Shown piece by piece: positions 1,864 to 42,058 of a stretch of 43,730 bases of DNA (its first letter is position 1; each line of letters begins with the position of its first letter). The position numbers were made by a program, and so were the translations under genes. The stretch covers positions 1-43,730 of the forward strand of contig CAZXAD010000001.1 of assembly GCA_964638825.1 (NCBI GenBank), given 5' to 3'. This DNA is from an uncultured Candidatus Saccharibacteria bacterium. Its GTDB lineage: Bacteria > Patescibacteriota > Saccharimonadia > QS-5-54-17. Under the pieces are notes generated by a model, which saw nothing but the letters and a program-made list of their open reading frames with translations, made no database searches and was not told the origin of the DNA.

Positions 1864-2343
1864 TTAATCATACCGCAAAGAAGCAATATCGCCTATACCA
1901 ACGTTATGCCTCCGGCTAAACCCGGCCGGTACCTCGAGAACATAGTGCGCCGGCACGCGTGAGGTAACCGTTCCCGGGTACGAATCCGGCGATAAGGATC
2001 GGGTAATATCAACTACTTTTCCCGTTTCATCCATCCAAATAATATCGATGCTGAAATTCATGTCTTTCATGTGGAAATCGTATCTCCCGGGTTCCTCATA
2101 TACAAACAGCATACCTGTTTCGTCGGATAAAGACGTGCGGCCCGATAAACCCTGAGCGCGCTTCTTGGGAGTATCAGCCAGTTCTACTTTTACTGAAACT
2201 CCCTCGAATACCACCTGAGAAGTAGTATTTGAGTAATAACCATGGTACCAAACGCCAAGACCTATTGCTGCAATTATTCCCGCCAGAAAGAAAACAAGCA
2301 GTTTAGGCACCGACTTTATCTTTTTTGGGTTTTCTTGTGGCAT
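1864..2343 (-). CDS. DUF192 (COG1430) family protein with N-terminal membrane anchor
   Basis: Characteristic DUF192 core: RAQGLSGRTSL...GMLFVY...FHMKDMNFSIDIIWMD...YVLEVPAGF. ATG at 2341-2343; overlaps the rimK 3' end by 41 nt. Confidence 0.75.
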   Translation of the reverse strand: MPQENPKKIKSVPKLLVFFLAGIIAAIGLGVWYHGYYSNTTSQVVFEGVSVKVELADTPKKRAQGLSGRTSLSDETGMLFVYEEPGRYDFHMKDMNFSIDIIWMDETGKVVDITRSLSPDSYPGTVTSRVPAHYVLEVPAGFSRRHNVGIGDIASLRYD

Positions 2344-3208
2344 TAATTTCCACGTATTTAATAACCTTGGCGGCGATATTGCGTCCAGTAGCAGATTCCA
2401 CGCCTTCCAGTCCCGGCGAAGAGTTTACTTCAATTACGAGCGGGCCGCGTTCTGAACGTAATAAATCCACCCCTGCTATATCCAAACCGAGTTGCTTGGC
2501 TGCTTTTATGGCGATACGCCGCTCATCCTGCGAAAGCTTTACCTTTTCACCTGTTCCACCTTGGTGTATATTTGACCGGAATTCCTCATCCAGTCCTTGC
2601 CTGCGCATAGCACCGACAACGCGGCCTCCAACAACGACAGCACGAATATCGGCTCCCCCTGACTCAGCAATAAATTCCTGAACCAAAATAGATTGGTTGA
2701 TACTGTAAAAGGCCTGGATAACGGAGCGGGCGGCCTTTTTTGTTTCGGCCAGTACCACACCTTGGCCATGCGTGCTTTCGACCAATTTAACGATCAACGG
2801 AGTACCCCCGACAAGCTCGACAAGATTATTTATATCCGTCGTTCTGTTCGCAAATGCTGTTTTAGGAATATCGATTCCCGCGCTTGATAAAAGCTGCAAG
2901 CTGCGGAGCTTATCCCGGGAGCGCACGAGCGCGATCGATCGGGTAACGCTGTATATATCCTGCATCTCAAACTGACGGACAACAGCGGCCCCATACCCCG
3001 TAAAAGAAAATCCGATACGTGGAATAATAGCGTCGATACTGGGCAATGCTTCCCCTTGATAATGCACGTTGGGACGGCCTTGTTCCATGCCGACATAGCA
3101 TTTGGTATAGTCGATGACTTGTGACTCATGTCCGCGCTCATGTGCTGCTTGCACGAGCCGTTGAGTAGTATAGTTATCGGTACCTCGTGAAAGAATAGCT
3201 ATCCGCAT
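2303..3208 (-). CDS. rimK: RimK-family ATP-grasp alpha-L-glutamate ligase
   Basis: N-terminus MRIAILSR plus ATP-grasp motifs (PLIVKLVESTHGQGVVLAE, FIAESGGADIRAVVVGGRVVGAM, AGVDLLRSERGPLVIEVNSSPGLEG). The track start at 3211 is GTG. The ATG at 3208 sits 5-7 nt after AGGAAGGAAG and is preferred. Confidence 0.9.
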   Translation of the reverse strand: MRIAILSRGTDNYTTQRLVQAAHERGHESQVIDYTKCYVGMEQGRPNVHYQGEALPSIDAIIPRIGFSFTGYGAAVVRQFEMQDIYSVTRSIALVRSRDKLRSLQLLSSAGIDIPKTAFANRTTDINNLVELVGGTPLIVKLVESTHGQGVVLAETKKAARSVIQAFYSINQSILVQEFIAESGGADIRAVVVGGRVVGAMRRQGLDEEFRSNIHQGGTGEKVKLSQDERRIAIKAAKQLGLDIAGVDLLRSERGPLVIEVNSSPGLEGVESATGRNIAAKVIKYVEINATRKPKKDKVGA

Positions 3209-3231
3209 CACGACTTCCTTCCTTTAATGCA

Positions 3232-8648: not shown

Positions 8649-8774
8649 TTTCCTAACTATAGCATAAGCGGTTTTATAAGCGGTAATCCAGAAAAGTAGT
8701 TATGATTCCGTATTCAAATTCTGTCCACATATAAAAAATGCCTGAGCTCTTCTATTGAGTACTGGCGTATTACC

Positions 8775-9902
8775 TTAAAGCCGTTTCTTTTTACGGTGTT
8801 TGCGCAGTTCTTCCATTAGTTCCTTCTGTTTATTGGTCAATCGTTTCGGAATTGCCACGTTCACCGTTACCAAATGATCCCCGCGGGTATCCCCTCGTCC
8901 ATACGGCACACCGCTTCCCGCGATACGGAAAGTCTGTCCGTTCTGGGTTCCAGCCGGTATTTTCAGTTTCTTTTTCCCGTCTACCGTTTCAACTTCTATT
9001 TCGGTACCGAGTGCTGCATCGAACATATCGATCGTTTTCTCAGAAGTAATATCCTTGCCGCGACGGGTAAATTGTTTACTGGAACGTACCGATACATGGA
9101 CATACAGATCGCCTTTCCGCCCGCCTGATCCGCCAATGGGCGGCGCTTCGCCGCGTTCCTGTAAACGGATTGTAGCCCCATCATTGATTCCGGCAGGGAT
9201 TTTAACGTTTATCTGATGCCTGCTCCGTTTCGTTCCTTTGCCGCCGCATTCGCTGCATGCTTTTTCCGGAATCGAGCCGTGGCCATGGCAATCAGGACAG
9301 GTGGTAGCGTGTTGAATGGTGCCCAGCACAGTCCGCTGCGCCTGTATGACTTGTCCTTGGCCGCCACAGGTATCGCATGTCTTGGTACTGCTTCCCGGTT
9401 CTGCCATGGAACCTTCACACCGAGGGCACGTGTCTTCCAGGTTCAATGCGACCGTTTTTTCCGTACCGAAGACCGCTTCTTCGAAATCGATGGTTATTCT
9501 GGCTTCAACATCCCTGCCACGGCGGGTTTGTTGCCGGCGGCCACGTTGGGTGCCGCCTCCAAAAAAACTCCCGAAGATATCACCGAGATCCATGTCGCCC
9601 AAATCGAATTCAAATTGCTGGCCTCCGCCGAATCCACCGAACCCGAACGGATCAGCGCCCGCGCCGGCGCCGCCAGCACCTTGTGCCGACTGATACGCGT
9701 CATGCCCGAACCGGTCATAACTCTGGCGTTTCTGGGAATCGCTGAGCGTTTCGTAGGCTTCGCTGACCTCTTTGAACGTTTGTTCATCGCCGCCTTCTTT
9801 GTCCGGATGGTATTTGGCGGCTAATTTACGGTAGGCGCGCTTTATATCGTCCGCGGATGCATCTTTGGAAACTCCCAGAACTTCGTAATAGTCCTTTGCC
9901 AT
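8775..9902 (-). CDS. dnaJ: Molecular chaperone DnaJ (type I: J-domain, G/F region, four CxxCxGxG zinc motifs)
   Basis: DYYEVLGV...YHPD; G/F-rich linker; CPRCEG, CDTCGGQG, CPDCHGHG, CSECGGKG. Confidence 0.97.
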   Translation of the reverse strand: MAKDYYEVLGVSKDASADDIKRAYRKLAAKYHPDKEGGDEQTFKEVSEAYETLSDSQKRQSYDRFGHDAYQSAQGAGGAGAGADPFGFGGFGGGQQFEFDLGDMDLGDIFGSFFGGGTQRGRRQQTRRGRDVEARITIDFEEAVFGTEKTVALNLEDTCPRCEGSMAEPGSSTKTCDTCGGQGQVIQAQRTVLGTIQHATTCPDCHGHGSIPEKACSECGGKGTKRSRHQINVKIPAGINDGATIRLQERGEAPPIGGSGGRKGDLYVHVSVRSSKQFTRRGKDITSEKTIDMFDAALGTEIEVETVDGKKKLKIPAGTQNGQTFRIAGSGVPYGRGDTRGDHLVTVNVAIPKRLTNKQKELMEELRKHRKKKRL

Positions 9903-9947
9903 GGTTTACCTTGCTCTACCTATTTACGCCGGCCAACAGAGACCGCT

Positions 9948-11876
9948 TTATTTTTCATCGGTTTTGTTTTCCTCATCGTCGACCACTTCGCCTTCTTCTA
10001 CGTCGGATGGCTGCTCGGTTTCACCCTCGACTTCGGTTTCGGCCTTCTCCGCCTCTTCGGATGCCTCTTGTTGCACGTTTTCGTGCATTTTAGCACCGAT
10101 CGGCTGTATCTTGTCCAACAATTCCTGGGAAGCTTTTTCAAGGTCTTCTTTGCTCAGATCAGATTCAAGCTTTTCCTTGGCTTCCTTTACTGCTTCATCG
10201 AGCGTTTTTCCGTCTTCTTCTGAAAGTTGGTCTTTGTGGTCAGATTGCATCTTTTCGGCAGTGTAGATTGCCGTTTCAAGCTGGTTGCGAGCCTCGGCCT
10301 TTTCGCGTTTCTTCTTGTCTTCTTCGGAATGCGCTTCAGCGTCCTTGCGCATCTTTTCTACTTCTTCTTCTGAAAGGTTGCCGCTGTTTTCAATGGTAAT
10401 CGACTGCTCTTTTCCGGATGATTTGTCTTTGGCGCTCACGTTCAGAATGCCGTTCGCATCAATGTTAAAGGTGACTTCTACCTGGGGGACGCCGCGCGGA
10501 GCGGGAGGAATACCGTCAAGAATGAACCGCCCCAGCGATTTGTTATCGGCTGCCATTTCACGCTCACCCTGGAGAACATTGATCTCGACTGACGTCTGAT
10601 TATCGGCCGCGGTCGAGAACACTTGGCTTTTACTGGTCGGAACGGTGGTGTTGCGCTCGATCAATTTGGTCATGATGCCGCCTTCGGTCTCAATACCCAA
10701 TGACAAGGGAGTGACATCGAGCAAAAGCACGTCTTTGACATCTCCGCCGAGCACGCCCCCTTGGATAGCCGCACCCAGGGCTACTACCTCATCAGGATTA
10801 ACGCCCTTCAGCGGATCTTTGCCGAATATTTCCTTTACTTTCTCCTGGACTGCCGGCATGCGGGTCATTCCGCCCACCAAAATCACTTCGTTTACATCGT
10901 TCGCCTGGATGCCCGCGTCTTTCAAAGCGTCTTTGCAGGGTTTTTCGGTTTTGGCGATCAAATCGTTTACCAGCTGTTCCAATTTGGACCGGGTCAACTT
11001 GTATTCAAAATGCTTCGGTCCTTCAGTATCAGCGGTCAAGAACGGAAGATTGATATCGGTTTCTTTGGTGCTTGAGAGCTCCGTTTTGGCTTTTTCAGCC
11101 GCTTCTTTCAACCGCTGTACCGCAGCTTTATCTTCTGATATATCGATACCTTCCTGTTTTTTGAACTCCTCGATTAGGTGGTTCATGATGGTTAGGTCGA
11201 AATCTTCACCGCCCAGGTGCGTATCACCATGAGTGCTTTTCACCTCAAACACGCCGTCGCCAAGTTCCAGTATGGAAACATCGAACGTTCCCCCGCCAAG
11301 GTCGAATACGGCGATTTTCTCTTCTTCCTTTTTATCAAGGCCGTAGGCCAATGCGGCAGCTGTTGGCTCGTTGATAATCCGTTTTACTTCGAAGCCGGCG
11401 ATTTTGCCAGCATCTTTCGTGGCCTGGCGCTGGGAGTCGTCGAAATAGGCCGGCACTGTGATAACCGCTTCGTTTATCGTCTCGCCGACATATTCCTCGG
11501 CATCGGTTTTCAGTTTCTTAAGAACCATGGCTGAAATTTCTTCGGGGCTGTAATCCTTATCGCCCATGGTAACCTTTACGCCGTCATCGGCTTTATTGAT
11601 CGCATACGGCATCAGTTTAATGTCGCGCTGCACTTCTTCATCGTCGAACTTACGTCCGATTAAACGTTTGGCTCCATGGATAGTATTCTCCGAATTGACG
11701 ACTGCCTGACGTTTGGCCATTTGCCCTACGAGCCGTTCGCCGTTTTTATTTACGGCTACTACGCTCGGAGTAGTCCGGTTGCCTTCGGCGTTGGAAATAA
11801 CCGTGGCATTTCCGCCTTCCATGATTGCCATGGCTGAATTAGTTGTTCCTAGATCGATACCTAAAATTTTACCCAT
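9948..11876 (-). CDS. dnaK: Molecular chaperone DnaK (Hsp70)
   Basis: [30 protein letters not shown]; acidic C-terminal tail. The start ATG shares one base with the grpE stop (TAATG). Confidence 0.98.
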
Positions 11877-12484
11877 TATTCTTCCTCCTTATTCTCTTGT
11901 TCTTCTTTAGATTGCTCATTATTGTCCGTTGGCCGGGATTGCTCGGATGGATTACCTACCTTCACCATTGCCGGACGCACAACGGTATCATTCAATGTGT
12001 ATCCGGTACGCAATACTTCCGTAACAATCTCATCATTGCCATCACCCTCTTCGAACTCAACAGCCTCATGGAGTTGTGGATCAAACGGTTGGTGTAATGC
12101 ATCGATTCTCGCTACTCCCATGTCGTTCATTTTCTCCTGTGCCTGTTCATACACTTTTCCGACTCCTTGAGCCCACGGGTTACCGCGTAACTCTTCGGGT
12201 ACATGCGATAACGCGCGTTCCAAATCATCAAATAATGGGAGAAGCTGGGTGATGACTTCCGACCTCGCCCGGGAAAGGATTTGTTCCTTCTCCGATTCCA
12301 TCCGGCGTTGATAGTTCGCAAAATCAGACCGCTCCCGTTGCAGGTCATGAGTCAAATCTTCCACTTGCTGCTTTAGATCAGCCACTTTCTTCGTGTCGCG
12401 CTTACCCTTTGACTGTCCGGACCGCGGTTGCTTCTGTTCTTCCTCCGCTTGCTGCTGAGTCTTCTCGACGTCTTCCTCACTCAT
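11876..12484 (-). CDS. grpE: Nucleotide exchange factor GrpE
   Basis: [15 protein letters not shown]...[12 protein letters not shown]...FDPQLHEAV...[16 protein letters not shown]. Sits between hrcA and dnaK; 8-nt overlap with hrcA. Confidence 0.93.
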
Positions 12485-13178
12485 GTAAAACCTCCTCTAA
12501 TGTGCGCGCACTATGTTCAATGATGCGCATTACGTTACCGTAGCTTTGGCGGGTCGATCCAACGACTCCTACATAATTGGTAGTACTATACGGAGAAATG
12601 TATCCGGACACTATTACCGCACATCCGCTTGATTTCCCTACGGCATTTTCTTCGCCGATAAAGGCCTCGGCCGTATGGCCGGGGCGCATCTCCTGGAGCC
12701 ATGCTTCCAAGTTATCCAGCAATCCGGCAATTTCGCCGACACTATCGGCGAATTCCGGTTGATGGAATAATTGGGAAAATCCTTTGGTATACATGGCCTC
12801 CCCCATAGTAGCGAACGCTACATTGCGGGTCGCGTGTACAAGCGAGTCTACCGTTACCTTAATCGCTGCCTGCGGAGACCCGGCATTGTGAATGCGTCGT
12901 TCGATCGCTTTTCGGGTACGCGTTGTCGCATCGAGTTTATGCTGTGGTCCCGTAAGCGATTCCACATAGAACCGGTACCCTTTCTCCGTCGGTATACGGC
13001 CGGCACTCGTATATGGATGCGTAATATGTCCCGCCTGTTCCAAGCTGGCCATTTCAGCCCTGATAGTCGCAGGCGACACACCGTACTGATCGGCAAGCAC
13101 CTGTGAGCTTATGGGGGTAGCAGCTTGCACGTAATACTCAACAATGGTTTTTAAAATACGTTCTTGACGCACTGTCAT
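12477..13178 (-). CDS. hrcA: Heat-inducible transcription repressor HrcA (unusually short, about 233 aa)
   Basis: N-terminal wHTH RQERILKTIVEYYVQAATPISSQVLA...VSPATIRAEMASLEQAG, and a C-terminal GVVGSTRQSYGNVMRII block typical of HrcA. The ATG at 13178 lies 5 nt after GAGGTGG. The track GTG at 13187 overlaps that RBS and was rejected. Confidence 0.88.
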   Translation of the reverse strand: MTVRQERILKTIVEYYVQAATPISSQVLADQYGVSPATIRAEMASLEQAGHITHPYTSAGRIPTEKGYRFYVESLTGPQHKLDATTRTRKAIERRIHNAGSPQAAIKVTVDSLVHATRNVAFATMGEAMYTKGFSQLFHQPEFADSVGEIAGLLDNLEAWLQEMRPGHTAEAFIGEENAVGKSSGCAVIVSGYISPYSTTNYVGVVGSTRQSYGNVMRIIEHSARTLEEVLHE

Positions 13179-13197
13179 GCGAACCACCTCTATGGCA

Positions 13198-22522: not shown

Positions 22523-22599
22523 TGGTACCAGGGGTGGGATTCGAACCCACGACGCCGGGCTTATGAGTCCCGTGCTCTAACCAACTGAGCTACCCTGGC
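22523..22599 (-). tRNA. tRNA with CAU anticodon (elongator Met or Ile2/lysidine type), CCA encoded
   Basis: The reverse complement is GCCAGGG TAGCTCAGTTGGTTAGAGCAC ... CTCATAA ... GTGGGTTCGAATCCCAC CCCTGGT A CCA. The D-arm and T-arm are canonical; there is a G1-U72 wobble and an A31-G39 mismatch in the anticodon stem. Confidence 0.85.
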
Positions 22600-35647: not shown

Positions 35648-36961
35648 TCAACTCTGGTATTTATAACCCCAAGGGTTCATGGCTCTTTTGAGCACACTTT
35701 TTAGTGACGGAGAGTCGTCCAGAACCTTTTTCCCGAGTTCAGGATTTGTTTTTTCAAGATCAGAAAGTAATTTAGCCGTGACTTTCACTTGCCCTCGCCG
35801 CTGTTTTTCAGGATCGTGCACGAGACCCCACTCCAGCTGTTCAACTAGTTCAAGAGCAAAAGCTTGCTTAGCTAAATCCATACCGTCACCATTCATATCA
35901 TGCTGTGATTCGGCGATTTCCAGCCATTTCTTAACCGTTTCAAGTTCTTGAGGATATTTTCTGTCATCAAGCGGTGTTTTCCAATAAGCCAGTTGCCCTA
36001 AAGATCCATCGTAGCCGAATTCTTCTCGAGGCATGAAATAGAACGTGAAGGCAGACTTGGCGAACAGGTAACTCTGATATAACGACCGCTCACTTTCGGG
36101 TATATCGGTAATAGTGGTAGCATTTTCCAGGATTTGCAGCACTCTCTCCATCCTTCCTCGCTGCTCATTATCATCAGAGTCTTGATATGAAGGACCGGGG
36201 TAATATTCCGGCCTGTTCAAGATAAAAAGTCCTTCAGATGCCTGAGAGACCGCTTCTTCAAGATCCGCACCTATATGTATACCCATGTTCGGGTTACGGG
36301 GGCCGACTAGATCTTCTATATTCACCCCTGAAGCATTTAAGTCCGCGCCTGACTCATGCAAAGCACGTACAGCATATTTCAAGATTTCACGTGAGTGAAT
36401 AATCGCACTGCTTTGCAGAACATCTTCTGCCTTGGATTCTTCTACCCCGAGCCTATTGGTAAAATACGCTTTCAGTCTGGCCCTTTCATGGATATTGTTA
36501 AACACCCTTCCCGGGTTGTTTCTTTCTATTGTTTTGAATGCTATCAAAGATTGCAACGAAGCCGGCAATTCTGTGAAAGTAGATAAGTCAGAAAGTTTTT
36601 CGCCGCCCTGTCTCCCAAACACATGGTCCATATCAGTCCTGAACTCCTCAGCGCCCTCCAAGAAAGCACTTTCTATTCTCCTCTTGTCAAAGTTATCAAT
36701 ATTGAGGTCAAAAATACTACAAAAGTTTTCAATTTTCATGGCCGGAAATCTTGTATATCCGAGTCCTAAATCCTTAGTAGGTTCTATACTGAATGTCCCC
36801 AGCGCACCACGTATCTGGTACCTAAGCCCGGGTTCCTCAATGAGCCGGTCCGCGATAGACTCTCTAAAATCTGGTGCTACTTCCGGCACAGCTAATGTGC
36901 TATCTAATGATATTGTGTCTATTTCTAATTGATCGTAATCGCTCTTGGGTGTTTCACTCAT
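35648..36961 (-). CDS. Hypothetical protein (437 aa), orphan
   Basis: Long ATG-started ORF with normal composition and no motif recognised. It lies directly downstream of the terminator that closes the GC-rich operon. Confidence 0.6.
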   Translation of the reverse strand: MSETPKSDYDQLEIDTISLDSTLAVPEVAPDFRESIADRLIEEPGLRYQIRGALGTFSIEPTKDLGLGYTRFPAMKIENFCSIFDLNIDNFDKRRIESAFLEGAEEFRTDMDHVFGRQGGEKLSDLSTFTELPASLQSLIAFKTIERNNPGRVFNNIHERARLKAYFTNRLGVEESKAEDVLQSSAIIHSREILKYAVRALHESGADLNASGVNIEDLVGPRNPNMGIHIGADLEEAVSQASEGLFILNRPEYYPGPSYQDSDDNEQRGRMERVLQILENATTITDIPESERSLYQSYLFAKSAFTFYFMPREEFGYDGSLGQLAYWKTPLDDRKYPQELETVKKWLEIAESQHDMNGDGMDLAKQAFALELVEQLEWGLVHDPEKQRRGQVKVTAKLLSDLEKTNPELGKKVLDDSPSLKSVLKRAMNPWGYKYQS

Positions 36962-37283: not shown

Positions 37284-38687
37284 CTAGCAAGCGACAAGAG
37301 TTCGCTTGTCGGTCCGGACCGGACCGAAAGAAGTCAGCATGACGGGAGTTTGAAGCTCCTCAACCAAAAGGCCGAGAAGCTGGTTGATATCCGTCGCAGG
37401 TGCCGTTGTTTCGCTACCAGAAGATAGATCTACCCTCTGATAAAGCGGCTGACAGGCGAACAGGAGCTGAGTGAGACGTTCCTGGTGGTCGAGATTGTCC
37501 TTTCCGTCGGCGTGGATGAGCTGAATGGCTCCGCTGGCATCACGCGTCAGGTATGGTTCGAGGTCTGGATAGGTTGCTGGATGCGAGTACGCGGTGGCGA
37601 TCTGCCATTGAGCATGGTATTCCATGCGGTCGAGGCAAGTTACACCGAGCGCATCAATGCCACCACAGACCTCTATCGCATACCGCAGAGCTACCAGGTC
37701 GGTGTAGCCGACCCTGAACCCCAGTTGCCAGCGATTGTGACCGTTGTGCAGATCCGGGAGATCAGCCGAGAGCTCGGCATCCTCTGTCACGAACGGGCCG
37801 GGGCCGTGCCGGGTGGCATAGCCGCGGGTCAGACCCAGTCTGGTGACTTGGCCATCGAATCCATGTTCGTCGAGAATAGTCAAAGCGTTCTCGAAGGTAG
37901 TGGTACTCCAGGTAGTGTAGGGATGAAAACCGAACCACTCATCCAAAAGAACGCCCTGGGCGCCTTCGAAGATGACTTTATCGGCTCTCTCAAGCAGTAC
38001 GTCGAAGTACTGCTTGTCCACTATCTGGGCCCTTCGACTGAAATCCTGATACAGGGCCAGGCACTGGTCGACCATCAACGGGTCGTTCATCAGGGCTAGC
38101 TCCTGTTTCACCTGATCATTGTCGGGCAGTTGATCGATCAGTTCTCCTAGCTGTTCGCGCTTGTAGTCGCGCACCCGCTCCAGCTTCTGCTGTAGCAAAC
38201 GGGTACTGTAAAAGTCACTTACACGCACGGTTAAATCCGGAGTATTAATGGAATCGGCCATGGTTTCGCCGATCCCCTGACCACAGCTACCGTGTCTCCT
38301 ATCTCCTCTGGCTAATTCGCGTATACGGTTAGCCGACTGGTGCCAAGGAGTGATGACCTTGGCCATAGAGTCGACAGTCAATCTCTCCCAAGCATCGCCC
38401 ACTCCGACTTCACGCAGATGGCGCTCCTCACCATACAGGTTGAACGGATTGACTAACATGAAGCGCGAGAGATGGGTGCGCGCACCAGGTACGAAAGTGC
38501 CGCTGCCAAATTGGGCAAAGGTATGATGCCGACCGTCGGGAGTAGTAACGTTGTGAGCGGCCTGAGGGCCGCCGTTGAAGCGAACTACCAGAGCGGACTG
38601 TGCCTGGTTTGCCAGGTAATCGACAACCGACCCTTTACCGGCATCGCCATAGGTTAGATCGGCGACAATCACCGCTTCGCGCCTCAT
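37284..38687 (-). CDS. Divergent adenylosuccinate synthetase (PurA) family protein, 467 aa
   Basis: PurA-type motifs: GDAGKGS (vs GDEGKGK), GGPQAAH (vs GGHNAGH), GQGIGE (vs GRGIGP), FEGAQGVLLD (near identical), RHGPGPFVTE (vs RVGAGPFPTE), SFGPVR (vs STGPDR). The Asp-binding loop is not conserved. Confidence 0.8.
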   Translation of the reverse strand: MRREAVIVADLTYGDAGKGSVVDYLANQAQSALVVRFNGGPQAAHNVTTPDGRHHTFAQFGSGTFVPGARTHLSRFMLVNPFNLYGEERHLREVGVGDAWERLTVDSMAKVITPWHQSANRIRELARGDRRHGSCGQGIGETMADSINTPDLTVRVSDFYSTRLLQQKLERVRDYKREQLGELIDQLPDNDQVKQELALMNDPLMVDQCLALYQDFSRRAQIVDKQYFDVLLERADKVIFEGAQGVLLDEWFGFHPYTTWSTTTFENALTILDEHGFDGQVTRLGLTRGYATRHGPGPFVTEDAELSADLPDLHNGHNRWQLGFRVGYTDLVALRYAIEVCGGIDALGVTCLDRMEYHAQWQIATAYSHPATYPDLEPYLTRDASGAIQLIHADGKDNLDHQERLTQLLFACQPLYQRVDLSSGSETTAPATDINQLLGLLVEELQTPVMLTSFGPVRTDKRTLVAC

Positions 38688-38724
38688 GGGAAAACCTTTC
38701 TTTTTGCCGCAAGAGCGGCTGGTA

Positions 38725-38763
38725 CCCCCATGGACGGAGGAATCTTCATTCCGTCCATGGGGG
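38725..38763 (-). promoter_or_regulatory. Perfect 13-bp intercistronic stem-loop between the vWA and PurA-like genes
   Basis: cccccatggacgg (38725-38737) and ccgtccatggggg (38751-38763) are exact complements with a 13-nt loop. No T-run follows on the minus strand. Confidence 0.7.
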
Positions 38764-38773
38764 CGGATGCGTT

Positions 38774-39808
38774 CTACAGTCTCGGAGCTGGCGGATCATC
38801 AGACAAATCGGATAGCTGACCATCGCTGTCGGCAATCGCTACCGTACCTGCCTGCACTGTCGACAGAGCCTTGCCAGCAGCCTTAACGGCAGCCAGATCG
38901 GATCCGGTTTGTTGTAGATCGTCCAGCGTATCATCGAGGTCGACACCACCCTCAAACATACCGAGCGTGGCACCGATTACTTCGCAGACCGCCGATGGGT
39001 CGTCGAGCCGCAAGGCCCGCTCGCCTATCAGCTTGCGCCAGACCGGAAGCACTTCTTCGGCCTGGTAGGAACCCTGCTCCTGGAAAAGAAAGAAGACGTT
39101 GAAACGCTTCTCCAATTCCGCGAAGATCTGCTCGGTAGAGATGTCGGCTTCGAGCTGATCACCCACCAGAGCTTCCAGTGTGTGACCGGCATAGCCGAGA
39201 TAGGCACGCTTGACAGCATCGTAGGGCTTCTCGTCTCCGATGAAGAAGACGTAGCCCTTCTTGCTGAAGCGCTCGAAGGTCTCGAGATAGGTGTGGTAGG
39301 CCAAGAAGTACGCAGCCAGCTCGTAGGTCTCGTGCGTTTGGCCGCCACCATTACCTTCGAGATAGATAGCGGCCAACTGTTCGTCCATGCGGTTGTCCGA
39401 CTCGAACTGCCCCATCTGGAGCGGAACGCTGTCGGTGTGAGCATCGCCCACGGCACCGAAGAGGATCTGGGGGTCCTCGACGTAGCCCTTGCGCTGGAGT
39501 AGCCCGTGCAGTTGTGGCAGCTTGTCGTGGGCAGCCACAGCAGCAGTGTAGTTCGAGCCGGTCACATCCAGCACCACCGCGATGGCGGTCGGGTTGGAAT
39601 GATCGTCGGAGATCATGGCCTCCCGGATGTTCCGTCCGACATGCGGACCGTCCTGGTTGGCCCAGTTGGTATCAACCAGATCGTGCACCCGGGCGCTCTG
39701 ACGCCCGGCTCGGATCTGGTCGGTGTAGTCGAAGGTGCTTCTGCCAGCAGCGCGGTTCGCAGCTTGCCGCTGTTCGTATACGTCCGTCGTCCAACTTCCT
39801 CCACCCAT
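38774..39808 (-). CDS. von Willebrand factor A (vWA)-like protein with MIDAS-type motif, 344 aa
   Basis: AIAVVLDVTGS (D-x-T-x-S MIDAS variant), GGGQTHE (Thr) and VFFIGDEKP (Asp), in the order and spacing expected of a vWA Rossmann fold. ATG start preceded by GAAAGGAAA. Confidence 0.7.
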   Translation of the reverse strand: MGGGSWTTDVYEQRQAANRAAGRSTFDYTDQIRAGRQSARVHDLVDTNWANQDGPHVGRNIREAMISDDHSNPTAIAVVLDVTGSNYTAAVAAHDKLPQLHGLLQRKGYVEDPQILFGAVGDAHTDSVPLQMGQFESDNRMDEQLAAIYLEGNGGGQTHETYELAAYFLAYHTYLETFERFSKKGYVFFIGDEKPYDAVKRAYLGYAGHTLEALVGDQLEADISTEQIFAELEKRFNVFFLFQEQGSYQAEEVLPVWRKLIGERALRLDDPSAVCEVIGATLGMFEGGVDLDDTLDDLQQTGSDLAAVKAAGKALSTVQAGTVAIADSDGQLSDLSDDPPAPRL

Positions 39809-39841: not shown

Positions 39842-40945
39842 TCAGGGCATCCTGAACTCTCTGAAGCGTCTGGGGTGGTATGGTGGTCCGAGCCGCTCAA
39901 GCAGCTCGTCGAACTCTCTGAGCAGACCCCAGGCATCCTGCGGACGGCGGCGCTGGTCTTCAATCAGCGTACCGCGCATGAATGCCCGTAAGCCCTTAGG
40001 TATATTGACCGGTAGCGTACCGTTAGTTGGATCACCTCCCAGTAGATAGACCATGCATTTAGCGGCCAGGTAGATATCGGTTGCTGGCGAGAGTGTCTGT
40101 TGATCCAGCACTTCGGACGGATACCAATCTCTATACCCTGGATCCACCAACTTGGCCGCCGGAATGGAGCCATCGTCCTCCGTATCGGCGCTGTAGCACC
40201 AATCGGTAAGAACCAGTCCGTGCATCTGCGGATGGATCATGACGTGATCGGGAAGAACGGCGCCGTGGATAACACCGTTCCAACTGGCATACCCTACGGC
40301 TACAAGCAGCCGCCGCCACATCCAAGCCATGTCGAGAGGATGGATTCCGTCCGGGTAGACTTTTCTTACTTCGCTTAGTGAGTAGAAACCCTCTAGAAAA
40401 ACAGTGACGTTCGCCCGGCGGCGGCTTCCTTCTTTCTGGTAGTCGAATGTATCGATCAGATCCGGTATGTATGGATGGAGCCTTTCGTCCGTTCCGCTAC
40501 CTCGCAGCCTCTTAAGAGCCCTGGCTTCCTGGGCGAGCAAGTCGTTATCATGCGGTGAAGCCGCGATCTTGACCATGCTCCCAACAGAGTTGCCGCTCTT
40601 GGGCGTGGTGGTGGCACGGTAGATATTCCCGATTGCGCCTTTGAACGCAGAACCGTCGATGCGATGTTGGCACCGCTTAGTCCGCAGCGTCACGAACGTA
40701 TGGCCGTAGCTGCCGCTATCCAACGCGGCTAAGGCCTCCTGATACAGCTTCGTCAGCCGCCCGAAAACCTGCGAGGCGATACCCTCATCATCACAGGCGC
40801 ATAAGTCCGGGTGGACTACACGTGAGAGACGCCGATAAGTCTGCTTAACGTGCCGGGAGGGTGAGCTTTCAGCATGCCCGAACACATCAAGATAGCTGTT
40901 GGCATCAAGTATATTTCGAGCCACGTGATCGAACTCTGTACTCAC
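39842..40945 (-). CDS. J-domain protein fused to a protein-kinase-like (probably pseudokinase) domain, 367 aa
   Basis: J-domain: SYLDVFG...KQTYRRLSRVVHPD, with HPD encoded at 40805-40813. Kinase-like: Gly-loop FKGAIGNIY, VKIA Lys, AQEARAL Glu, catalytic-loop position IHGAVLPDHVMI (Asp replaced by Ala, Asn by His), DFG position TDWC, subdomain IX ATDIYLAAKCMVYLLGG. GTG start 5 nt after AGGAG. Confidence 0.7.
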   Translation of the reverse strand: MSTEFDHVARNILDANSYLDVFGHAESSPSRHVKQTYRRLSRVVHPDLCACDDEGIASQVFGRLTKLYQEALAALDSGSYGHTFVTLRTKRCQHRIDGSAFKGAIGNIYRATTTPKSGNSVGSMVKIAASPHDNDLLAQEARALKRLRGSGTDERLHPYIPDLIDTFDYQKEGSRRRANVTVFLEGFYSLSEVRKVYPDGIHPLDMAWMWRRLLVAVGYASWNGVIHGAVLPDHVMIHPQMHGLVLTDWCYSADTEDDGSIPAAKLVDPGYRDWYPSEVLDQQTLSPATDIYLAAKCMVYLLGGDPTNGTLPVNIPKGLRAFMRGTLIEDQRRRPQDAWGLLREFDELLERLGPPYHPRRFREFRMP

Positions 40946-41009
40946 CTCTTCTCCTGTTCTTAGACTGTCAATGTTCTAAGTGTAGTTTTTACACTAACAC
41001 TCTACTCAT

Positions 41010-41049: not shown

Positions 41050-41718
41050 CTAGGCGAAACGCTCTAACTCTTTAACACGGCTGTCCTTAAATCTATAAAG
41101 CAAAGCTGGACGATGCGGGCCAGTCTTCTTCTCCTTTGTTTCCTCCAGCACCCCCAGCGACAGGAACTTCTTACGGAAGTTACGCTTATCCAACTTTTGG
41201 TTGTATACGGCTTCGTACAAACTTTGCAATTCCTGAAGAGTAAACTTCTCCGGGAGAAGCGCTTGGGCAACAGTAGTATAGTTAAGCTTGTTTTTTAGAC
41301 GATCCATAGCATATTCGATAATCGAATCATGATCAAAGGCCATCTCCGGCAGTTGACGGACATCGTAGAACTGTGGGTTCTCGACCCGGCCTCCTGCCTC
41401 CGGACTGACATGGTGGTTTAGTACCATGTAGCTTACCGAGATAGCATGCCCTCGCGGATCTCTAGCCACTGTGTCAAAAGTATAAAGCTGTTCCGCATAC
41501 GCCAAAGATTCTACATCCACTCCCGTCTTCTTCTGCATAATCCGCGCTGCTGCTTCCCAGGTAGTTTCCCCTTGAGCATTGTAACCACCAGGTAGGGCCC
41601 GCTGCCCACGGAAGGGTTCATTCTGCCGCTGGATTAGCAGCACTTCAAGCGTCTCATCCTTATATCTGAAGTAGACTATGTCCACGGTTAGTGTGGGCGG
41701 TTGATAAGTATTTGTCAT
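41050..41718 (-). CDS. NrtR-type regulator: degenerate Nudix domain plus C-terminal winged-helix
   Basis: Nudix-fold N-terminus with box GGYNAQGETTWEAAARIMQKKTGV (the REx2EE glutamates are replaced by I and KK). The C-terminus FDHDSIIEYAMDRLKNKLNYTTVAQALLPEKFTLQELQSLYEAVYNQKLDKRNFRKK is typical of NrtR. The track start at 41757 is TTG; the ATG at 41718 is preferred. Confidence 0.8.
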   Translation of the reverse strand: MTNTYQPPTLTVDIVYFRYKDETLEVLLIQRQNEPFRGQRALPGGYNAQGETTWEAAARIMQKKTGVDVESLAYAEQLYTFDTVARDPRGHAISVSYMVLNHHVSPEAGGRVENPQFYDVRQLPEMAFDHDSIIEYAMDRLKNKLNYTTVAQALLPEKFTLQELQSLYEAVYNQKLDKRNFRKKFLSLGVLEETKEKKTGPHRPALLYRFKDSRVKELERFA

Positions 41719-41719
41719 A

Positions 41720-41740
41720 TTATTGTACAATATACAATAA
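41720..41740. promoter_or_regulatory. Palindrome TTATTGTA-N5-TACAATAA abutting the NrtR-like start codon (candidate autoregulatory operator)
   Basis: 8-bp perfect arms read directly; located 2 nt upstream of the ATG at 41718; no Shine-Dalgarno between them, so the mRNA may be leaderless. Confidence 0.5.
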
Positions 41741-41807: not shown

Positions 41808-41840
41808 AGCGGGGGCAGAATAGTCAGCAAGCTGACCTCC
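41808..41840 (-). repeat. Degenerate duplicate of the 3' half of tRNA-fMet (att-like remnant)
   Basis: agcgggggcag (41808-41818) is identical to 41988-41998 inside the tRNA. gacctcc (41834-41840) matches 42012-42018 in the same order and orientation. The sequence between them has diverged. Confidence 0.6.
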
Positions 41841-41983: not shown

Positions 41984-42058
41984 TGGTAGCGGGGGCAGGA
42001 TTCGAACCTGCGACCTCCGGGTTATGAGCCCGACGAGCTGCCACTGCTCCACCCCGCG
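41984..42058 (-). tRNA. Initiator tRNA-fMet (CAU), CCA encoded
   Basis: The reverse complement is CGCGGGG TGGAGCAGTGGCAGCTCGT CGGG CTCATAA CCCG ... GCAGGTTCGAATCCTGC CCCCGCT A CCA. It has an unpaired 1-72 position (C-U) and three G-C pairs closing the anticodon stem, both initiator hallmarks. Confidence 0.92.

Follow-up and report, generated by a model that had tools for sequence, protein, structure and literature searches.

A PurA-family protein with a rebuilt aspartate pocket is encoded in a mobile three-gene module of a Candidatus Saccharibacteria genome

The stretch of DNA analyzed here, referred to throughout as the window, comprises 43,730 nucleotides from an uncultured Candidatus Saccharibacteria bacterium (GenBank assembly GCA_964638825.1, contig CAZXAD010000001.1, positions 1 to 43,730). 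At 37284-38687 on the minus strand it encodes a 467-residue protein of the adenylosuccinate synthetase (PurA) family, a predicted GTP-dependent ligase that we call the ligase below. Its sequence and those of its relatives show the ligase to be a genuine PurA-family enzyme, conserved and widely distributed, with a predicted new second substrate; it probably carries out a nucleotide reaction not described before, and it belongs to a three-gene module. The gene does not stand alone: the ligase is the enzyme of a conserved and mobile module whose other members encode a vWA protein and a J-domain pseudokinase. Our favored reading, which as a whole we hold to be probable but well short of secure, is that the ligase represents a clade sister to PurA which carries out a GTP-dependent ligation with a nucleophile other than aspartate, within a mobile module under the control of an NrtR-family regulator.

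The gene begins with ATG and was found on the strand, at the position, and with the length that an earlier note on this DNA had given it. The motifs quoted there are all present, namely YGDAGKGS at residues 13-20, QAAH at 42-45, GQGIG at 136-140, FEGAQG at 240-245, GPGPFVTE at 295-302, HNGHNRWQLGFR at 314-325, and TCLD at 350-353, and the excess length of about 35 residues over a typical PurA was measured as 36 residues relative to the 431-residue E. coli enzyme. A Pfam profile search placed PF00709 (Adenylsucc_synt) on residues 8-371 with 212.2 bits, but the protein falls far below the cut-offs of the purA equivalog models TIGR00184 (147.5 bits against 395.55) and NF002223 (168.3 bits against 402), as well as that of the PurZ model NF038379 (51.5 bits against 300). 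The AlphaFold2 (AF2) model of the ligase (pLDDT 87.8, pTM 0.90) has the long-form bacterial PurA fold, and its best Foldseek matches were ligand-bound structures of E. coli PurA, with TM-scores of 0.76-0.84 at 25-26% identity; the TM-scores with PurZ and PurZ0 were 0.49-0.56.

A homologue search over 5.8 billion proteins returned more than 120 full-length relatives of the ligase with 47-61% identity, and the 120 closest were used for residue mapping. The ligase was aligned with E. coli and Yersinia PurA in three ways, by phmmer, by MAFFT together with the 120 homologues, and by comparison of a 37-sequence family profile with PDB sequences; the three alignments concur within one residue. The core for GTP and Mg2+ binding and for acid-base catalysis is kept. 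In E. coli numbering, Gly12, Asp13, Gly15, Lys16, and Gly17 correspond to G14, D15, G17, K18, and G19 of the ligase, His41 to H45, Gln224 to Q244 (Glu221 to Gln224 lying in FEGAQG), Thr239 to T259, and Arg272 to R293, while the guanine-specific Asp333 is retained as D353 and the C-terminal Ser-x-Gly-Pro as S453, G455, and P456. The counterparts of the catalytic Asp13, Lys16, His41, and Gln224 are invariant in 120 of 120 homologues; across the set D15, K18, H45, Q244, T259, R293, and D353 conservation is 114-120 of 120, T259 being the sole residue that is not invariant. The earlier note had held that the GTP- and IMP-site motifs are retained, and this stands for the catalytic and GTP core, but the IMP pocket is partly remodeled. 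Three of the four IMP 5'-phosphate ligands of PurA are altered: Asn38 and Thr129 are conservatively replaced by Gln42 and Cys135, and Arg143, which is contributed by the partner subunit, is lost to Asp151, with only Thr239 kept as T259.

The L-aspartate site differs more profoundly, as the PurA ligand set of Thr300, Thr301, Arg303, Arg305, and Arg131 is missing from the ligase. Trp320-Gln321 is found where PurA has Thr300/Thr301-Gly302, in a loop (HNGHNRWQLGFR) that is one residue shorter than that of PurA, followed by Leu322 at the position of Arg303, Phe324 at Arg305, and Arg325 at Arg306. Elsewhere, Arg131 is replaced by Gln137, Val273 by His294, Ser240 by Trp260, and Lys331 by Cys351. Among the 120 closest homologues W260, H294, W320, Q321, and R325 are invariant, position 324 is Phe in 109 and Met in 11, and position 135 is Cys in 115, whereas the residues that stand in for Arg131, Arg303, Arg304, and Lys331 vary. 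The hallmark changes are present in every cassette-linked subclade found, including gp250 of phage Bxz1, a distant Saccharibacteria subclade at 33% identity, and the proteins of Rhizobium and Vibrio phages. Throughout these, TRVG of PurA becomes TRHG, G-x-TTGR-x-RR becomes the shorter (by one residue) N-x-x-x-[W/Y/H/F]-Q-x-x-[F/M/I/V]-[R/K], TKLD becomes T-[C/H/G/N/W/S]-x-[D/N], and Asn38 becomes Gln, except that the Vibrio phage version retains Asn. The canonical PurA of a Saccharibacterium from the same order retains GTTTGRKRR and TKLD. The replacement loop, retained by each of the 120 closest homologues and throughout the cassette-linked subclades, is therefore a signature of the family and not the product of decay or chance. 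On these alignments, the aspartate-binding residues are gone and not shifted, and the pocket they formed is rebuilt by a conserved aromatic, His, and Gln set consisting of W260, H294, W320, Q321, and F324. The replacement of the loop GATTGRxRR, which binds aspartate and the IMP phosphate, and the reading of the guanine-specificity motif TKLD as TCLD were thus both borne out.

In a maximum-likelihood tree, 7 canonical PurA proteins split from 23 cassette-linked proteins with support of 100/100, so that the ligase falls outside the canonical PurA clade. By this phylogeny the ligase clade is sister to canonical PurA; its members are unlike PurZ. Five free-living genomes (Spirillospora, Myxococcus, Oscillochloris, Actinomadura, and Verrucosispora) each carry a true PurA scoring 518-555 bits together with the paralogue at 115-135 bits. 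A scan of one genome per prokaryotic species revealed at least 583 loci encoding a relative of the ligase, with hosts in the Actinomycetota, Chloroflexota, Myxococcota, Patescibacteria, Planctomycetota, Acidobacteriota, and Gammaproteobacteria. Among phage records, 240 encode the ligase and 220 the vWA partner, including those of 201 Mycobacterium (Bxz1-type), 10 Rhizobium, and 6 Vibrio phages.

The second member of the module is encoded at 38774-39808 on the minus strand, directly upstream of the ligase gene. It is a 344-residue vWA protein bearing a metal ion-dependent adhesion site (MIDAS), with the N-terminus MGGGSW, an N-terminal extension of about 70 residues, and a disordered C-terminal tail ending in Arg-Leu. 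The protein had no Pfam or PADLOC match, but its AF2 model (pLDDT 89.7) retrieved integrin beta-I/alpha-I and pilus vWA domains in Foldseek with a probability of 1.00. The MIDAS motif DVTGS, residues Q131, G133, F135, and E136, and the pair D192-E193 are invariant in 42 homologues. The family comprises 1,096 clusters (50% identity) at E ≤ 1e-30, and the window protein is 56.5% identical to those of Bxz1-type phages.

The N-terminus of the vWA protein follows a near-universal pattern, Met-Gly-x-x-x-[W/F/Y]-x-x-x-x-[Y/F], of which the window version is MGGGSWTTDVY. An MG start is seen in 140 of 150 independent cluster representatives and MGxxx[W/F/Y] in 132, and the representatives lacking MG mostly resemble fragments or proteins with mis-called starts. 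The pattern reads MGSGxWSTDVY in actinomycetes, MGYSxWS in Chloroflexota, MGYGGYSHEAH in Myxococcota, MGSGAWDSYTY in Bxz1, MGGGRFDTNAY and MGGATWNSADY in the Rhizobium and Vibrio phages, and MGRDTF or MGYDTF in the distant subclade, with a Shine-Dalgarno sequence ahead of each of these MG starts. The annotated start of the Bxz1 vWA protein lies 12 codons upstream of the conserved MG. Residues 1-7 are a coil in the AF2 model, and removal of the initiator Met is predicted to leave a free N-terminal glycine on this seven-residue segment. At the other end of the protein, Arg-Leu terminates the disordered tail at 56 of 72 genome loci, and it does so in Bxz1 gp248 too. Conservation at both ends suggests that the termini are functional. 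No covariation was found between the type of N-terminal tail and the pocket residues of the ligase, of which W260 is invariant.

The third member, at 39842-40945 on the minus strand, is a 367-residue protein with a GTG start that combines a J domain (HPD) with a kinase fold and gave weak Pkinase and DnaJ Pfam matches. When 69 family members were aligned, at least 90% had HGA-x-x-P-x-H as their catalytic loop in place of HRD-x-K-x-x-N, while the VAIK Lys, the alpha-C Glu, and the Asp at the DFG position are kept. Since the catalytic Asp is missing from the catalytic loop, we consider the protein a pseudokinase. The host hrcA-grpE-dnaK-dnaJ operon is located in the same window (8775-13187, minus strand, with dnaK at 9948-11876), and thus a DnaK is at hand for the J-domain protein.

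The order pseudokinase, vWA protein, PurA-like ligase was seen in all 8 of the further loci first examined, which came from Saccharibacteria and Ktedonobacterales. In the best 80 of the at least 583 loci, the vWA gene is directly upstream of the ligase gene in 72, the pseudokinase gene is present in 66, and an nrtR-like gene in 36. In actinomycetes nrtR typically heads a co-directional four-gene array, as it does in the window. The stop codon of the vWA gene frequently overlaps the ligase start by 4 nt in other loci. In the window the two genes are instead separated by 86 nt, a gap with a predicted folding energy of -42.4 kcal/mol (z = -5.3 relative to 200 shuffled sequences) that contains a GC-rich 15-bp hairpin without a U-tract at 38724-38764 on the minus strand; this hairpin could be an element for processing, stability, or differential expression. 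In Bxz1 the corresponding genes are gp247 (annotated as a Ser/Thr kinase), gp248 (vWA), gp249 (90 residues), and gp250 (annotated as a "PurA-like adenylosuccinate synthetase"). The acidic 90-residue gp249, which lies between the vWA and ligase genes of Bxz1-type phages (8729-9001 of our locus L019), has no counterpart in the window. Clustering of 2,533 flanking open reading frames from the 80 loci revealed no further conserved partner around the cassette, the clusters shared across lineages being only the promiscuous SDR, response regulator, ABC, and MFS families.

Upstream of the module, at 41050-41718 on the minus strand, is a gene for a 222-residue Nudix-related regulator of the NrtR/AraR family, starting with ATG at 41718. 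The protein matched NrtR_WHD (PF21906) with 92 bits and NUDIX with 50.6 bits, and among solved structures it comes closest to Bacteroides AraR (1e-34) and then to Shewanella NrtR 3GZ5 (4e-29). It adjoins its putative target genes, and two predicted NrtR-type operators accompany it. Operator 1 (TTATTGTATATTGTACAATAA, 41720-41740) is an exact match to the search pattern, abuts the nrtR start codon, and overlaps the -10 element of a promoter-like sequence, TTGACG-17-TATATT, that spans 41757-41729. Operator 2 (TTAGTGTAAAAACTACACTTA, 40977-40997) lies about 30 nt upstream of the GTG start of the pseudokinase gene. Both are 21-bp palindromes with the GT-N7-AC core of the 21-bp NrtR operator consensus (PMC2330246). 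They are the only matches with at most one mismatch to TTANTGTA-N5-TACANTAA in the 668-kb genome, and matches with two mismatches were not commoner than with a reversed control pattern. The genome has thus kept an NrtR-type regulator whose sole detectable targets are itself and the cassette. Similar boxes, TTAGTGTA-N5-TACACTAA, are found ahead of the pseudokinase gene in Saccharibacteria, Ktedonobacterales, other Chloroflexota, and one gammaproteobacterium, at some loci without an adjacent nrtR. Taking the 80 loci together, 27 such sites fall within the 4.5 kb upstream of the ligase and 5 elsewhere, an 18-fold difference in density. The regulator and its operators, which are the basis for this step, point to NAD+ or ADP-ribose turnover as the trigger of the module. 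Placing the module under an NrtR-family regulator also changes which substrates of the ligase are plausible, compared with a view of the gene in isolation.

The module has the marks of an accessory acquisition. The G+C content at third codon positions (GC3) of its three genes is 0.62-0.70, compared with 0.34 for nrtR and 0.36-0.52 for the flanking genes. Of the 8 genomes of the order, 1 encodes the ligase, and nrtR was not found in the other 7; in the class as a whole, the ligase gene is present in 7 of 401 genomes. From this GC3-rich block and sporadic distribution we conclude that the module is accessory and was horizontally acquired. The genome to which the window belongs, an assembly of 80 contigs totaling 668,405 bp, has a completeness of 88.9%, so that the purB, HGPRT, and NAD-gene negatives that follow mean not found and do not prove absence. 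Neither purB (TIGR00928) nor a second PF00709 gene was found in it, so that the case which the earlier note would have taken as a refutation, a genome with a normal purB partner and no other purA, was not what was seen; nor did the survey of genes in the window reveal any other purine-biosynthesis gene, as that note had stated. Also not found in the genome were HGPRT above the cut-off, NAPRT/NAMPT (PF04095), NAD synthase (PF02540), and an NMNAT-type nucleotidyltransferase (PF01467). It may be that the organism takes up intact NAD and purine nucleotides.

In PurA, Asp13 deprotonates N1 of IMP, O6 attacks the gamma-phosphate of GTP with the assistance of His41, and the amine displaces the phosphate. 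This established chemistry and the kept core together lead us to infer that the ligase would use GTP to activate an oxo group, after which a nucleophile lacking the aspartate carboxylates would attack. In our favored reading of a GTP-dependent ligation without aspartate, the ligase would bind GTP and transfer the gamma-phosphate to an oxo or hydroxyl group of a nucleotide-like acceptor, most simply the 6-oxo group of a purine, and a nitrogen nucleophile would then attack the activated position. The second substrate would be an uncharged, aromatic, or peptide-borne amine, or ammonia. The earlier note had proposed a ligase that still activates a purine 6-oxo group and uses a different amine donor and/or nucleotide; the absence of the aspartate ligands supports the change of donor, while activation of the 6-oxo group is inferred because Asp13, His41, Gln224, and FEGAQG are retained. 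With all of the ligands for the aspartate carboxylates gone, adenylosuccinate cannot be made in the manner of PurA, and no purB that would use adenylosuccinate was found in the 88.9% complete genome. The module would be switched on as the effector of the regulator accumulates, this effector probably being ADP-ribose or a related sugar-nucleotide that signals NAD+ breakdown. The ligase probably has the vWA protein as a stoichiometric partner, with the J-domain pseudokinase probably linking both to DnaK.

Several points weigh against this reading. The acceptor and the nucleophile are both deduced from residues in an alignment, and the alteration of three of the four IMP 5'-phosphate ligands (N38Q, T129C, and R143D), together with the occurrence of His at the Gln224 position in the distant subclade, indicates that the acceptor may not be IMP. 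The regulator is slightly closer to the arabinose-sensing AraR than to the ADP-ribose-sensing NrtR, so its effector may not be ADP-ribose. No NAD-salvage gene recurs beside the cassette in the 80-locus sample, and NAMPT/NAPRT-type (PF04095) and NMNAT-type (PF01467) genes were not found in Bxz1. Finally, at two Saccharibacteria loci (10001-11389 of L072 and 9986-11395 of L094) the ligase gene occurs in a genome with no vWA or pseudokinase gene detectable anywhere, so that the vWA partner is not strictly obligatory. In both, the ligase gene lies directly upstream of open reading frames that were read by eye as GAPDH, RpiB, a ribulose-phosphate epimerase-like protein, and a split transketolase.

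The NrtR-type control also admits a reading in which the ligase rebuilds NAD+ or a precursor, as a one-enzyme analogue of the phage NARP1 pathway. GTP would phosphorylate the anomeric hydroxyl of ADP-ribose and nicotinamide would displace the phosphate, or else the enzyme would amidate nicotinate nucleotide. The cassette being the only detectable NrtR-type regulon of its genome, the boxes ahead of it across phyla, and the failure to find NAPRT/NAMPT, NAD synthase, and NMNAT-type genes would all fit, as would the new pocket, in which W260, W320, F324, and H294 form an aromatic cage. Such cages stack pyridine rings in NAMPT-type enzymes. The module is, moreover, common to bacteria and lytic phages, as are the NARP2 genes, and in a Rhizobium phage, the sole such case seen, a phosphoribosyltransferase-like gene and an annotated NMN adenylyltransferase/Nudix gene are located 3-5 kb away from it. 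This chemistry, however, does not require the purine-lactam residues that the ligase has retained (Asp13 as the base, Gln224, and FEGAQG), and by our own estimate one GTP barely covers the cost of the N-glycosidic bond. The lack of recurrent salvage genes among the 80 loci and of other NAD genes in Bxz1 counts here as well, and the NARP papers make no mention of a PurA-like protein. We regard an NAD+-rebuilding role as unlikely.

The missing purB and second purA are likewise compatible with a one-step aminase that uses ammonia to convert IMP (or GMP or XMP), forming AMP without PurB. Bulky Trp, His, and Phe residues filling the aspartate pocket are what would be expected for a small nucleophile, and the sugar-phosphate genes read by eye beside the ligase gene in the two Saccharibacteria (GAPDH, RpiB, and transketolase) would belong to ribose or nucleoside catabolism. 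An aminase of this kind nevertheless leaves the vWA and pseudokinase partners and the NrtR control unexplained. The gene is also sporadic, at 7 of 401 genomes of the class, and coexists with a full PurA in free-living bacteria, and no HGPRT that would supply IMP was found. We think it distinctly unlikely.

Equally doubtful in our judgment is a role in an anti-phage or other conflict system, with the ligase as its effector or signal generator. The vWA protein and kinase would act as TerY-P-like sensors and the ligase would deplete or modify a nucleotide. The sporadic and mobile distribution and the GC3-foreign block are consistent with this, the vWA and kinase pairing recalls the TerY-P triad, and the kinase-like protein weakly resembles the defense kinases MkoA, MAD6, and PD-T4-6. 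These weak matches of the kinase domain were the only ones to a known defense system, the ligase and the vWA protein having no PADLOC match, and assignment to such a system was rejected. The module lacks a phosphatase, its kinase has lost catalytic function family-wide, the regulator is of a metabolic type, and 201 lytic phages of the Bxz1 type carry this very module.

The conserved N-terminus of the vWA protein raises the further idea that the amine donor is a protein, with the alpha-amino group of the N-terminal Gly attacking the GTP-activated purine to form an N6 tether, and the pseudokinase reading the tethered nucleotide. What is lost from the ligase is exactly the set of residues that bind the aspartate carboxylates, which a peptide N-terminus does not have. 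The MG start and the MGxxx[W/F/Y] pattern prevail among the 150 representatives (140 and 132, respectively), the same N-terminus recurs in every subclade and in phages, each time with its own Shine-Dalgarno sequence, and it is modeled as a coil over residues 1-7. Translation of the ligase gene is often coupled to that of the vWA gene, and the pseudokinase keeps the Lys and Glu of the nucleotide pocket. Yet two genomes have the ligase without the vWA partner, the tail type and the ligase pocket do not covary, and we know of no protein modification in which a purine is tethered to an N-terminus. A protein donor is in our estimation quite improbable. A shade less probable still is the extended version, in which the ligase would be a protein-nucleotide ligase whose N6-joined purine on the Gly alpha-amine would constitute a new kind of N-terminal "purinylation" mark, and the pseudokinase, using its intact nucleotide pocket, would read the mark and hand the protein to DnaK.

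Although the ligase is the sole PF00709 gene of its genome and annotation pipelines label its homologues adenylosuccinate synthase, it is very improbable that it still works as an adenylosuccinate synthetase that has merely diverged, or that it is a dGMP enzyme of the PurZ type: the residue mapping with its lost aspartate ligands, the equivalog scores far under the purA cut-offs, the tree, the unmatched purB, and the presence in a related Saccharibacterium of a canonical PurA with GTTTGRKRR and TKLD led us to reject a divergent housekeeping PurA, and the NF038379 score of 51.5 against 300 bits, the Foldseek TM-scores, and the retention of Asp15 where PurZ has Ser at the Asp13 position (PMC12884076) led us to reject PurZ.

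Several other features of the window were recorded. Directly downstream of the ligase gene, at 35648-36961 on the minus strand, is a 437-residue open reading frame that had no Pfam, NCBIfam, or PADLOC match and no homologue in roughly 90 related loci; its composition is host-like (GC3 0.42), which places it outside the module. Three tRNA-Met(CAT) genes are found at 22523, 41984, and 42801. An 11-nt copy of the tRNA-Met 3' end, CTGCCCCCGCT, is located at 41808-41818, 165 nt downstream of the tRNA at 41984-42058 and between that tRNA and nrtR. A tRNA-flanked island was considered and rejected, as no second copy of the 11-nt tRNA-Met end bounding the cassette was found. At 2303-3211 on the minus strand, a gene for a RimK-type ATP-grasp ligase, unrelated to the finding described here, overlaps a DUF192 gene at 1864-2343 on the same strand. 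Besides the hrcA-grpE-dnaK-dnaJ operon, the window also includes gmk, lepA, murJ, ftsH, tilS, glycogen genes, and genes for a penicillin-binding protein and dihydroorotate dehydrogenase.

PurA is among the best understood enzymes of nucleotide metabolism, and a sister clade with a conserved, rebuilt second-substrate pocket proves to be very widespread. Public annotation pipelines name homologues of the ligase adenylosuccinate synthase, and metabolic reconstructions are therefore mislabeled. The consequence is worst for the ultrasmall Patescibacteria, in which the gene would falsely imply the synthesis of AMP from IMP. The near-universal MGxxxW N-terminus of the vWA protein, with its predicted free glycine, is also new here. 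The reaction of the ligase, once worked out, would add either a new nucleotide transformation or a new protein modification, and would probably reveal a new link between NAD+ or ADP-ribose sensing, chaperones, and phage-host conflict. A full-text literature search found no published description of the ligase clade or of the three-gene module. In a survey from 2026, viral PF00709 proteins were sorted into a PurA and a PurZ group (PMC12884076); by our arithmetic, several hundred sequences fell into neither and went undiscussed.

Compared with known systems, the ligase is closest to PurA itself (EC 6.3.4.4; TIGR00184/NF002223; structures 1ADE and 1CG0-1CG4), with which it shares the long-form fold (TM-score 0.76-0.84), the P-loop GDxGKG with its Asp and Lys, His41, FEGAQG with Gln224, Thr239, Asp333, and SxGP. 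It differs from PurA in having W-Q for Thr300/301, L for Arg303 (a position variable within the family), F for Arg305, and Q for Arg131, in its additional 36 residues, in forming a separate clade supported at 100/100, in a genome where purB was not found, and in being encoded almost always within the vWA/pseudokinase module. PurZ/PurZ0, the 2-aminoadenylosuccinate synthetase of Z-genome phages (NF038379; 6FM1, 7ODX, and 7VF6), is also a phage-carried PurA paralogue and, to our knowledge, the only PurA paralogue shown to have a new substrate. PurZ is a short-form protein of about 340-365 residues that still uses aspartate, its substrate being changed, whereas the ligase has 467 residues and, by its alignment, has lost aspartate binding; the datZ, mazZ, and dpoZ context of PurZ was not seen in the stretches examined. 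The TerY-P triad, or Gao_TerY, consisting of a TerY-like vWA protein, a Ser/Thr kinase, and a PP2C phosphatase, resembles the module in that a cytosolic MIDAS vWA protein is encoded beside a kinase fold in a mobile element. In the module, however, the kinase has HGA in place of HRD, and so lacks the catalytic Asp, and carries a J domain, the phosphatase is missing, the third gene encodes the PurA-like ligase, and neither this nor the vWA protein was matched by PADLOC. The NARP1 (Adps with Namat), NARP2 (NAMPT with NMNAT), and NARP3 (PnuC with NadR) pathways are, like the module, shared by bacteria and large phages, but their enzyme families are not in the cassette, PF04095 and PF01467 were unmatched in both the window's genome and Bxz1, and among PDB entries it is AraR that the regulator most resembles. 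With the NrtR regulons, finally, the module shares its placement under an NrtR-family regulator with 21-bp GT-N7-AC palindromes.

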